Source: Flavobacteriales bacterium (lineage in GTDB: Bacteria; Bacteroidota; Bacteroidia; JACJYZ01). From it: a DNA stretch of 64,000 nt. The DNA lies in the NCBI GenBank assembly GCA_020435415.1, contig JAGQZQ010000002.1:26301-90300 (forward strand), read 5' to 3'. Position 1 is the first letter of the stretch. Each line of letters opens with the position of its first letter. Shown here one piece after another: positions 27,804 to 27,887 of the stretch. A program made the position numbers and the translations under genes. The notes beneath the pieces are model-generated. The model was not told the DNA's origin, made no database searches, and worked only from the letters and a program-made list of their open reading frames with translations.

Positions 27804-27887
27804 AGTAGACGGTAGACAGTAGATAGTAGATAGTAGATAGTAGATAGTAGATAGTAGATAGTAGATGGTGGGCAGGTGGTTGATTTG
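27804..27887. repeat. Tandem heptamer array (AGTAGAC/AGTAGAT x9, degenerating into GGTG-type units)
   Basis: Read directly. It sits in the divergent promoter region between the FKBP gene and 28114(+). The spurious minus ORF STIYYLL... is its translation. Confidence 0.9.

Follow-up and report, generated by a model that had tools for sequence, protein, structure and literature searches.

An array of tandem heptamers at 27804 lies upstream of an FKBP gene, and the neighbor on its opposite side shows a weak Pfam match to DUF4359. This array is the longest and purest of six AGTAGAT-type arrays with a period of 7 (hereafter H arrays), which are grouped in four loci of the window, the whole 64-kb stretch of DNA that was analyzed. 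The host is a Bacteroidota MAG labeled Flavobacteriales, and it encodes T9SS cargo proteins. All six H arrays are intergenic, lie between Pfam-supported genes, and overlap coding sequences only at stop codons. The neighbors originally named (DUF423, saccharopine dehydrogenase, FKBP, an HhH-GPD glycosylase, and OsmC) agree with Pfam. The arrays had been described as sitting mostly in divergent promoter regions. This applies to three of the four loci, but the pair at 10991/11139, which had been listed with the arrays upstream of genes, lies between the convergent AstE/AspA-like (+) and MscS (-) genes. Coordinates are given in Table 1.

Table 1. Repeat modules and flanking repeats in the 64-kb window, with the limits of the H arrays from TRF (period 7) and from our 14-mer scan.
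Feature	Position	Strand	TRF	14-mer scan	Remarks
H array, AGATAGT AGATAGT AGTTAGT	1396-1420	+	1398-1419	1396-1420	left end-module of the composite element 1396-1800
O array, GGTGATTT-type octamers	1462-1536	+			TGA in three frames of the C-free strand; family D3
P module, single GC-rich hairpin unit CCTGCCAGCCGAAGC...GCAGGCTGG	1622-1655	-			families D14 and D18
H array, ~6.5 units	1753-1800	-	1753-1798	1758-1800	right end-module, inverted relative to 1396-1420; ACTGCCT variants at the inner edge
H array, left hairpin arm	10991-11029	+	10991-11029	10991-11029	opening TAG (10991-10993) serves as stop for the AstE/AspA-like gene
Unique 109-nt loop	11030-11138	.			separates both inverted H arrays
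H array, right hairpin arm	11139-11181	-	11142-11181	11139-11181	MscS ends at CTA 11178-11180 (TAG on the minus strand)
Direct repeat AGCAAATTTG, left copy	27792-27801	+			holds the palindromic CAAATTTG
H array, AGTAGAC GGTAGAC then 7 x AGTAGAT	27804-27871	+	27804-27866	27811-27871	outer edge towards the FKBP promoter
Partial O-like tail (GGTGGGCAGGTGGTTGATTTGGGTT)	27867-27891	+			inner side of the H array
Direct repeat AGCAAATTTG, right copy	27892-27901	+			flanks the array segment
O array, left end-module of copy A	42782-42809	+			downstream of the csp gene and csp terminator
Two tandem P hairpin units, 40 nt each	42810-42889	+			copy A; family D19
U module, unique, ~46 nt	42890-42935	+			common to copies A and B; inverted pairs I1 and I2
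H2 array, copy A	42936-42975	-			minus-strand TAG TTTCTGG TTTAAAG TTTAAGG TTTAAGG TTTAAAG
H array, ~6 units, ACTAACT and ACTATCT mixed	43720-43762	-	43721-43760	43720-43762	outer edge 32 nt from the OsmC start codon
H2 array, copy B (TAGTTTCTGGTTTCTGGTTTAAGGTTTAAAGTT)	57815-57847	+			starts 7 nt past the TAG stop (57806-57808) of the upstream gene
U module and two P units, copy B	57848-57974	-			reversed relative to copy A; inverted pairs I1, I2, I6, and I23
O array, copy B	57975-58015	-			inverted pairs I20 and I24

The original prediction that this dispersed family occurs far above chance was confirmed. The 13-mer TAGTAGATAGTAG, with at most one mismatch, occurs 18 times in the window versus 0.02 expected. 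A scan of the 64-kb window for 14-mers within two mismatches of (AGTAGAT)n recovered the six arrays, whereas 20 Markov shuffles gave zero to three isolated 14-mers each. The five regions counted previously hold real arrays; however, the proper count is six arrays at four loci, and 1396/1758 and 10991/11139, taken as independent arrays, are each an inverted pair. The arrays at 27804 and 43720 are single. TRF assigned 9.0 copies with 94% matches to 27804-27866 and an additional 21-bp super-period, equal to two helical turns, to the H arrays. Unit variants (AGTAGTT, AGTACTT, AGTAGAC, and AGTAGGC) differ by locus. As read off the sequence, each of the three frames of (AGTAGAT)n contains TAG, and its complement, (ATCTACT)n, is free of stop codons.

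At 27804, the array begins 6 nt from a putative FKBP promoter, TTTG-N19-TACCTTTA, the boxes of which were assigned by eye. The CAAATTTG within the left copy of AGCAAATTTG may be the -33 TTTG of this promoter. The 10-bp AGCAAATTTG has two copies in the window, and a flank test gave p of about 0.004. A scan of 27500-28300 for sigma-70 promoters and terminators, with a model ill-suited to Bacteroidota, revealed none above the shuffle level. The heptamers had been extended to 27887; however, 27867-27887 belongs to a GGTG-rich, octamer-like tail, and this tail (27867-27891) shows similarity to the inner edge of the array at 1753 (inverted pairs I5 and I14). In two samples, contigs are interrupted at the 27804 array from both sides, and GTAGAC of the window is read as GTAGAT in one contig. 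Therefore, some slippage heterogeneity is possible at this array.

At the convergent locus, the two arms pair into a perfect 28-bp stem, with the irregular unit AGTACTT mirrored between them. Folding energies for 10985-11190 were -71.4 (plus strand) and -62.4 kcal/mol (minus strand), with z of about -6. The stem differs from an intrinsic terminator in that its 28 bp are AU-rich, its loop spans 109 nt, and there is no clear U-run. At the DUF423/saccharopine dehydrogenase locus, folding of 1385-1810 also pairs both H arrays (dG of -146 kcal/mol, z of -4.9). The 1396-1420 array has its outer edge 6 nt away from the start codon of DUF423, the array is reversed relative to DUF423, and a putative -7 box of this gene, TATCTTTG, identified by eye, is made at the array edge.

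Together, the H arrays, the GGTGATTT octamers, a 40-nt GC hairpin unit, and the GTTTAAG heptamers make up a mosaic of repeats that occupies the spacers separating transcription units. Modules O, P, U, and H2 recur across 1462-1655, 42782-42975, and 57815-58015. The latter two are composite copies A and B, of approximately 210 nt and in opposite orientation, which share roughly 80-92% identity by segment and end in unlike arrays, O on one side and H2 on the other. The terminal TAG of the H2 array in copy A (42973-42975) is the stop codon of HhH-GPD, and the outer edge of the O array in copy B faces the 3' end of the gene for a 1953-aa Calx-beta protein. H, O, and H2 consist of tandem 7-8-mers without an internal palindrome, P being the only hairpin-like module. 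The C-free strand holds TAG in every frame in the H arrays, TGA in the octamers, and TAA or TAG in GTTTAAG. When metagenomes were scanned for the P-hairpin pattern, the hits were all unrelated high-GC hairpins next to tRNA genes, with no further copies of the family. Rfam gave no match over the elements at gathering thresholds, and we took three sub-threshold matches at E <= 1 as chance.

In the window, the stop-rich, C-free strand of each array runs from the neighboring gene into the element. We examined the same relationship in approximately 120 loci (L001-L120) from some 90 other genomes, among the matches listed. Genomes with several copies included Elusimicrobia JACQJO01, Saprospiraceae CALGLU01, Thermoflexales JBIIIA01, and Chitinophagaceae CANGSR01. 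With ORFs crudely called from stop to stop (at least 300 nt), 70 of the 140 arrays among these matches end such an ORF between -20 and +25 nt of their 5' edge, versus 5.5 and 6.7% in placement controls. An ORF on the opposite strand ends at the inner edge in nine arrays and one passes through in ten, again among the matches listed. The stop codon lies within the array in 47 of the 70 ORF-ending cases, as TAG in 45 of these 47, and 57% of the stops located 3-20 nt ahead of arrays are TAG versus 28% in the background (both among the matches listed). Where two arrays are adjacent, all 24 pairs among the matches listed have the order AGTAGAT...ATCTACT and none the reverse, and genes read in from both sides in nine of the 24. 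In the same matches, arrays in co-directional spacers are sense in 41 cases and antisense in 15. Divergent spacers are depleted, with seven of 95 clusters among the matches listed versus 28% of the array-free spacer length, a trend opposite to that in the window. The polarity is a new and testable anatomical rule, which holds both in the window and in these other loci: the stop-rich strand leads out of the gene and into the repeat, whose first unit often supplies the stop codon. It directs attention to gene 3' ends and hairpins instead of promoters. Strand asymmetry of G.U positions in inverted pairs gave six in favor of an RNA-level hairpin and four against. We also considered that the arrays may be Rho-loading (rut) sites and rejected this idea because the transcribed strand downstream of the gene is C-free.

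The nearest sequenced relative is syntenic, with 64-72% amino-acid identity. Its spacers are shorter: 116 bp versus 471 bp in the window for DUF423/saccharopine dehydrogenase, 12 versus 184 bp for AstE/MscS, and 83 versus 222 bp for OsmC/HhH-GPD. In the 40 kb scanned, this relative has zero H-like 14-mers and zero period-7 arrays. The repeat system is absent from its corresponding spacers; the comparison rests on these three, since the region upstream of FKBP is not syntenic. The stop codons of AstE, MscS, and HhH-GPD are the opening TAG of the adjoining array. MscS, whose stop is at the residue homologous to that of the relative, and HhH-GPD match the relative's proteins exactly in C-terminal length, the stop there being TGA, whereas AstE is 6 aa shorter. 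In two of the three comparable genes, the window has TAG at the position where the relative has TGA. Since the relative is distant, insertion cannot be separated from long divergence in situ.

The arrays at 1396, 1462, 42936, and 43721 are base-for-base identical across 2-4 independent metagenome assemblies. The first two have the same bases in contig L126, which stops just short of the P module at 1622-1655, the H2 array at 42936 has no base differences in three other assemblies, and the 43720 array has the same sequence in L123. Contig breaks occur at the longest array, 27804, only. Samples in which the organism is present are SAMN08389233, SAMN08389224, and SAMN08389199, together with the runs underlying ERZ27309295, ERZ27309265, and ERZ27309288.

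No transposase, RAYT, or integrase was found among the ORFs of the 64-kb window, and BLAST of the composite elements against plasmid and phage collections gave no match. A significant flanking direct repeat, such as a MITE target-site duplication would leave, was detected at one of the six elements, namely the 10-bp repeat at 27804, and not at the other five. When the inner flanks of all six H arrays were aligned, no convincing homology emerged; therefore, we dropped the idea that H arrays are the ends of one conserved element. Viral contigs contained AGTAGAT arrays at nine loci versus four, 13, and eight loci for three control heptamers of the same composition. AGTAGAT does not appear to be a special heptamer spread by gene transfer, and since these counts are no higher than those of the controls, its wide taxonomic spread is probably generic.

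Dispersed heptamer repeats have been known for decades in cyanobacteria, Beggiatoaceae, and Bacteroidetes, without consensus on their function or origin. The H arrays belong to this class of bacterial heptanucleotide repeats (LSSR, STRR-like, and TAACTGA-like). The STRR heptamers of heterocystous cyanobacteria have the units CCCCAGT, TTGGTCA, and CAACAGT; the H arrays have other units and occur in another host group, and are not STRRs in the strict sense. The REP/BIME/REPIN elements of proteobacteria are extragenic motif mosaics located mainly behind the 3' ends of genes or in convergent spacers, often as inverted hairpin pairs. REP units are GC-rich imperfect palindromes that depend on RAYT, and REP elements leave no target-site duplication. 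The system described here is likewise an extragenic mosaic of short repeats with inverted pairs, mostly after 3' ends. However, H units are tandem heptamers and not imperfect palindromes of ~20-40 nt, and there is no RAYT in the 64 kb. Every H unit contains GTAG, the tetranucleotide conserved at REP 5' ends; we note this as a lead only.

LSSRs have units of 5-11 nt, and heptanucleotides are the most frequent class among them (Mrazek et al. 2007, summarized in PMC4679880). The H arrays resemble them in their head-to-tail heptamers beyond chance, their chiefly non-coding location, genome-specific abundance, and occurrence in scattered phyla; slippage is the accepted mechanism by which such arrays change in length. 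However, LSSRs are defined by abundance, and gene-ward polarity, stop-codon junctions, and mosaic partners are outside that definition. The TAACTGA repeats are direct heptamers of Beggiatoaceae, cyanobacteria, and some Bacteroidetes, and MacGregor (2015, PMC4679880) describes Flavobacteriia spacers with several kinds of heptamer array, forward strands that stop all frames, and shorter, repeat-free spacers in close relatives. The likeness to the H arrays is close, since both are dispersed intergenic tandem heptamers with stops in all frames of one strand and an open complement, and for Gramella, Aequorivita, and Elizabethkingia the same paper notes long arrays with other heptamers mixed in and contig breaks at the arrays. 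The unit here is AGTAGAT and its variants. Furthermore, the Beggiatoa sets mostly run forward just upstream of start codons, and inverted pairs are nearly absent (one indirect repeat). In contrast, the arrays here and in the other genomes abut stop codons and inverted pairs are common; in the window, the 1396 array alone is near a start codon, and it is reversed. An engineered "6xStop" cassette (PMC4472729) has a core, TAGTAGATAGTAGATAGTAG, identical to the H repeat; this laboratory construct demonstrates the stop property and not natural selection for it.

With moderate confidence, we consider the H arrays to be stop-rich end-modules of mosaic non-coding repeats that were copied into spacers, remodeled by slippage, and tolerated because they terminate ORFs. 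The polarity rule explains where heptamer arrays are tolerated. We infer the copying route, the history of selection and erosion, and the RNA-level role as follows. Repeat DNA bearing an array would be copied into a spacer without leaving a target-site duplication, and the array would then grow, shrink, and be homogenized through replication slippage. Purifying selection and the bacterial deletion bias may retain copies whose stop-rich strand faces incoming ORFs, because a junction with that strand ends the protein at once. Such selection for orientation would leave arrays flush with stop codons or core promoter boxes. In transcripts of convergent genes, inverted pairs would form a long hairpin right after the stop codon, which probably serves as a 3' barrier or stabilizer, by analogy with REP/BIME. 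Any effects on adjacent promoters would be incidental. Some results fit this explanation less well. In addition to the missing transposase, RAYT, and integrase genes in the window, a significant direct repeat is present at one of the six elements, the inner flanks are not homologous, and the relative is too distant. In the window, divergent spacers hold three of the four H loci, contrary to the trend across genomes, in which ORF calls were crude. The exact C-terminal length in two of the three genes suits stop-targeted insertion better than random insertion followed by erosion. An RNA-level role gains no support from the G.U counts, and the stems are AU-rich and lack a U-tract.

In another reading, the elements are non-autonomous and of the MITE/REPIN type, with heptamer arrays as inverted termini, a transposase encoded elsewhere in the genome and acting in trans, and perhaps targeting of the TA or TAG of stop codons. 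The inverted terminal arrays at two loci, with arms at 10991/11139 that are exact down to the irregular unit, the occurrence of the ~210-nt composite at two unrelated loci, the direct repeat around the 27804 segment, the start of elements at stop codons where the relative has TGA (two genes), and the excess of TAG in the stops shortly ahead of arrays among the matches listed are in its favor. However, five of the six elements lack a target-site duplication, arrays that stand alone lack a second arm, the inner flanks show no conservation, and neither the 64 kb, the plasmid and phage collections, nor the viral contigs gave a positive sign; we regard this reading as unlikely. A wider speculation, to which we attach a similarly low probability, is that stop-capped mosaics are unrecognized non-autonomous mobile DNA in many bacterial phyla, with all-frame stop cassettes of simple 7-8-nt repeats as its ends, which integrates exactly at stop codons. 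If true, such elements could enter the shortest spacers with both neighbors undamaged, leaving a hairpin between convergent genes. It is also doubtful that the arrays are iterated binding sites for a DNA- or RNA-binding protein (nucleoid, insulator, or a Csp-/S1-like RNA binder, as has been proposed for TAACTGA repeats) in a regulatory network located at transcription-unit boundaries. The presence of one heptamer at four loci excludes independent slippage as its source, and this, the exact position of arrays at stop codons and promoter boxes, and the super-period of two helical turns are consistent with binding. The authors on TAACTGA (PMC4679880) and on Nostoc heptamers (preprint 10.1101/2022.06.06.494920) favor an unidentified binding partner. 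The cold-shock protein gene beside copy A is probably a coincidence. No candidate binding protein was found, unit variants are locus-specific, neighboring genes have no common function, and the relative keeps these genes without arrays. Moreover, unrelated stop-rich units (GGTGATTT and GTTTAAG) occupy equivalent end positions, which argues for a property of the strand rather than a single binding motif.

Stop codons may themselves be the selected function, with the arrays acting as all-frame stop cassettes that, with a hairpin, end translation and transcription between close-packed or convergent genes. Both convergent stops at 10991/11181 lie in the array register, the read-in from both sides of inverted pairs and their polarity without exception (among the matches listed) fit this idea, and engineers chose an identical sequence for their cassette (PMC4472729). 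Nevertheless, 5-20 units far exceed the need of three frames, a 12-bp spacer without any such module suffices in the relative, there is neither a GC-rich stem, a U-tract, nor a strand asymmetry for RNA-level selection, and three window loci are away from gene ends. We consider host selection for this function to be quite unlikely. The main idea of the original prediction was that of contingency loci, in which changes in unit number through slippage alter promoter geometry and switch or tune neighboring promoters. As in the contingency loci of Haemophilus, Neisseria, and Moraxella, a short tandem repeat near promoters has a unit that is a multiple of neither 3 nor the helical repeat, and each 7-bp step shifts the helical phase. 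Three loci are in divergent spacers, the 27804 array breaks contigs in two samples and differs by GTAGAT/GTAGAC in one contig, and the proposed proximity to promoters was borne out insofar as array edges adjoin likely -33/-7 boxes assigned by eye. However, the arrays are outside the putative -33/-7 spacer. Known contingency repeats belong to surface or restriction-modification genes, where they occupy the ORF, the promoter spacer, or the 5' UTR, and they vary within populations. In contrast, the neighbors here are the housekeeping genes for FKBP, OsmC, a DNA glycosylase, and saccharopine dehydrogenase, along with DUF423, MscS, and an AstE-like gene, one pair lies between convergent gene ends, and the four shorter arrays compared are invariant in 2-4 assemblies. 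Elsewhere, arrays prefer gene 3' ends and avoid divergent spacers (among the matches listed). These results argue against a phase switch, which we consider very unlikely.

The arrays also affect annotation and assembly. They break short-read contigs, and their open strand makes spurious ORFs. An example of the latter at the FKBP locus is the ORF at 27664-27939 on the minus strand, which derives from the open strand of the array.

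Six period-7 arrays were detected in the window by Tandem Repeats Finder, the longest with 9.0 copies and 94% matches. In a second scan, 14-mers with up to two mismatches from (AGTAGAT)n were merged and gave six arrays. Each of 20 Markov shuffles yielded 0-3 isolated 14-mers, and TAGTAGATAGTAG with at most one mismatch occurred 18 times versus 0.02 expected. Therefore, the six AGTAGAT arrays at four loci are beyond chance, and the original prediction was correct regarding both their positions and their density. Its placement of arrays in promoter regions was only partly accurate. 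Some are in divergent spacers between genes identified by Pfam; however, the 10991/11139 pair is flanked by convergent genes and, thus, lies between two gene ends rather than in a promoter region.

Repeat features of the window, with neighbouring genes and matching assemblies
Feature	Coordinates	Strand and start in 14-mer scan	Neighbouring genes (Pfam)	Remarks
AGTAGAT array	1398-1419	plus, 1396	DUF423 (-) / saccharopine dehydrogenase (+)	identical, with octamers 1462-1536, in a contig from another metagenome sample
AGTAGAT array	1753-1798	minus, 1758	DUF423 (-) / saccharopine dehydrogenase (+)	
AGTAGAT array	10991-11029	plus, 10991	AstE/AspA-like (+) / MscS (-)	convergent
AGTAGAT array	11142-11181	minus, 11139	AstE/AspA-like (+) / MscS (-)	convergent
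AGTAGAT array	27804-27866	plus, 27811	FKBP (-) / weak DUF4359 match (+)	
AGTAGAT array	43721-43760	minus, 43720	HhH-GPD glycosylase (-) / OsmC (+)	identical in a contig from another metagenome sample
GGTGATTT-type octamer arrays	1462-1536, 42782-42809, 57975-58015			partial at 27867-27891
GTTTAAG-type heptamer arrays	42936-42975, 57815-57847			42936 array identical in three assemblies
GC-rich hairpin unit, 40 nt				CCTGCCAGCCGAAGC...GCAGGCTGG, five copies
Composites, about 210 nt	42782-42975, 57815-58015			opposite orientation
AGCAAATTTG direct repeat	27792-27801, 27892-27901			

The AGTAGAT arrays are re-used modules of a mosaic repeat system. Inverted pairs 1396/1758 and 10991/11139 enclose 337 and 109 nt, respectively. 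No homology was found among the inner flanks of the six arrays, which indicates that they are re-used modules and not the ends of one fixed element. Both composites lie between convergent genes and consist of octamers, two hairpin units, a unique 46-nt segment, and GTTTAAG heptamers, in that order; the copies are approximately 80-92% identical, varying by segment. On a crude ORF map of the window, three convergent and three divergent spacers contained repeat modules, which were absent from all of the approximately 30 co-directional spacers.

The existence of two composite copies is proof of copying. Copying is also required by the presence of the same heptamer at four loci, which is impossible by independent slippage. 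The only significant flanking direct repeat was AGCAAATTTG, present in only two copies in 64 kb, 100 bp apart, which bracket the 27804 array together with its GGTG-rich tail. Either a target-site duplication or the presence of a palindromic promoter motif (CAAATTTG) on each side could account for this pair. Similar sequences were not found in plasmid and phage collections. The wide taxonomic spread of AGTAGAT is probably a general feature of heptamer repeats rather than a sign of transfer, since (AGTAGAT)3 was no more common in viral contigs (9 loci) than three same-composition controls (4, 13, and 8). In several unrelated metagenome contigs of high GC content (L130-L139), the pattern CCTGCCAGCCGAAGC-N-GCAGGCTGG also recurs as a GC-rich hairpin immediately next to apparent tRNA genes, which were identified visually by their conserved sequence; this appears to be a distinct, REP-like repeat.

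(AGTAGAT)n lacks C and has a TAG in each of the three frames; its complementary strand has no stop codon. The octamer and the GTTTAAG heptamer likewise have stops in all frames on one strand (TGA and TAA/TAG, respectively). In the window, the stop-rich strand always reads into the element from the side of the neighbouring gene. The stop codons of AstE (10991-10993) and MscS (11178-11180) are the in-register first triplets of their respective arrays, and composite 42782-42975 terminates exactly on the HhH-GPD stop codon (42973-42975), its terminal TAG. Two mechanical ORFs, 27664-27939 (-) and 43743-44186 (-), run through the stop-free array strand and are probably spurious; such heptamer arrays may give rise to false gene calls.

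The closest genome on record, GCA_020635855.1, shares 64-72% amino-acid identity and is syntenic at three loci, which the spacer comparison covers; the FKBP upstream region showed no synteny. The DUF423/saccharopine dehydrogenase, AstE/MscS, and OsmC/HhH-GPD spacers are 116, 12, and 83 bp in this relative versus 471, 184, and 222 bp in the window. No AGTAGAT-like 14-mers or period-7 arrays were found in 40 kb of its sequence. Because the relative is distant, we infer, rather than observe, that array DNA was inserted into the spacers of the window. MscS (...VQVHMSK* versus ...VQVHMQK*) and HhH-GPD (YLWRSLES* versus YLWQSLDA*) have the same lengths as in the relative, where both stops are TGA, and AstE is six residues shorter than in the relative.

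An exact (AGTAGAT)3 search with one genome per species returned at least 120 loci in many phyla, several genomes having 3-9 contigs each. This sample was selected for perfect triple units, loci of the same genome are non-independent, and ORF calls were crude (stop-to-stop, at least 300 nt). Among the matches listed, an ORF on the AGTAGAT strand ended -20 to +25 nt from the array 5' edge in 70 of 140 arrays, versus 5.5% with random and 6.7% with non-coding placement; an opposite-strand ORF ended at the inner edge in nine arrays and read through from that side in 10 more. The stop codon was inside the array in 47 of these 70 cases (TAG in 45), and stops 3-20 nt before the array were TAG in 13 of 23 versus a background of 28%. 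Adjacent pairs among the listed matches were always ordered AGTAGAT...ATCTACT (24/24; reverse, 0/24), with genes reading in from both sides in nine. Array clusters in this set were in 19 convergent, 69 co-directional, and seven divergent spacers, the divergent type representing 28% of array-free spacer length at the same loci; in co-directional spacers, 41 arrays were sense and 15 antisense. At some loci (L033, L109, and L113 of cyanobacteria; L007, L012, L024, and L114), (AGTAGAT)n forms head-to-tail junctions with arrays of other heptamers, for example CAACAAT, AACTAAC, GTAAGTC, TAGTTGT, and CCTAATT, often as a C-free array followed by a G-free array partly complementary to it.

The original prediction proposed that unit gain or loss alters promoter geometry, or that the repeats are iterated binding sites. 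At divergent loci, arrays have their outer edges next to likely Bacteroidota promoter boxes, assigned by eye: TATCTTTG is 4 nt upstream of the DUF423 ATG (TACCTTTG, 7 nt upstream, in the relative), and a putative FKBP promoter, TTTG-N19-TACCTTTA, starts 6 nt from the 27804 array. A promoter switch as the main role is not supported, given the convergent locus, the paucity of arrays in divergent spacers of other genomes, and the identity of four arrays between the window and contigs of the same organism from other metagenome samples. In two samples, contigs break off on either side of the longest array (27804), and one contig starts within this array and has GTAGAT where the window has GTAGAC; these observations only hint at slippage heterogeneity that scales with array length. 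In the FKBP 5' leader, a small hairpin (GCAGTCGTCTTTCGACTGC, plus strand) is present at 27700-27718, and a similar one, gtgagcgaaagtcgttcac, occupies the same place in the relative (L127, approximately 5957-5977); it is unrelated to the arrays and may be a conserved leader structure.

RNA of 10985-11190 was predicted to fold at -71.4 (plus strand) and -62.4 kcal/mol (minus strand), with z of about -6 for both, and 1385-1810 at -146 kcal/mol (z -4.9) with its two arrays paired. The 10991/11139 stem is a perfect 28 bp; both arms carry the irregular unit AGTACTT in mirror image and are, therefore, copies of each other. Canonical terminators were rejected because the predicted stems are AU-rich and lack a U-tract. 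A G.U asymmetry test for the transcribed strand gave six for and four against.

Among long simple-sequence repeats of prokaryotes, heptanucleotides form the commonest class (Mrazek 2007, as summarised in PMC4679880). PMC4679880 itself describes TAACTGA repeats, whose forward strand has stops in all frames, from Beggiatoaceae, cyanobacteria, and five Bacteroidetes. In Gramella, Aequorivita, and Elizabethkingia, it reports long arrays combined with other heptamers; close relatives have shorter spacers that lack repeats, and contigs break at the repeats. A Nostoc preprint reported effects of heptamer repeats on promoter and translation output via a partner not identified there (10.1101/2022.06.06.494920). 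The AGTAGAT arrays belong to this known class, to which their unit is new. Strict polarity toward genes, a stop codon often formed by the first repeat unit, and uniform inverted-pair orientation were not found described in the literature searched. REP/BIME is the nearest functional analogy; however, the unit type differs, and no RAYT, transposase, or integrase is encoded within the 64-kb window. We give an even chance to the favoured reading, namely that this repeat DNA was copied, then remodelled by slippage, and would persist because its stop-rich strand faces incoming ORFs, the hairpins at convergent gene ends being a likely side effect.

The source is a MAG labelled Flavobacteriales, and the T9SS cargo proteins of the window are consistent with Bacteroidota. 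A large secreted HYR/Por_Secre_tail protein has in-frame internal repeats with a 243-nt period (24343-25293), and a large secreted 1953-aa Calx-beta protein contains an in-frame 2208-nt duplication (60244-63056). The window has no tRNA genes, and no Rfam family matched it at gathering thresholds. The divergent spacer 14123-14350/14351 contains a perfect (AACA)x6.8 tetranucleotide repeat (14357-14383). At 21559-22119, a phage tail collar domain is encoded by an isolated gene that has no other phage genes nearby. An arsenic-resistance-like cluster on the minus strand (18855-21148) comprises a low-molecular-weight phosphatase (ArsC-like), a MIP channel, a SAM methyltransferase, and an ArsR-family regulator.
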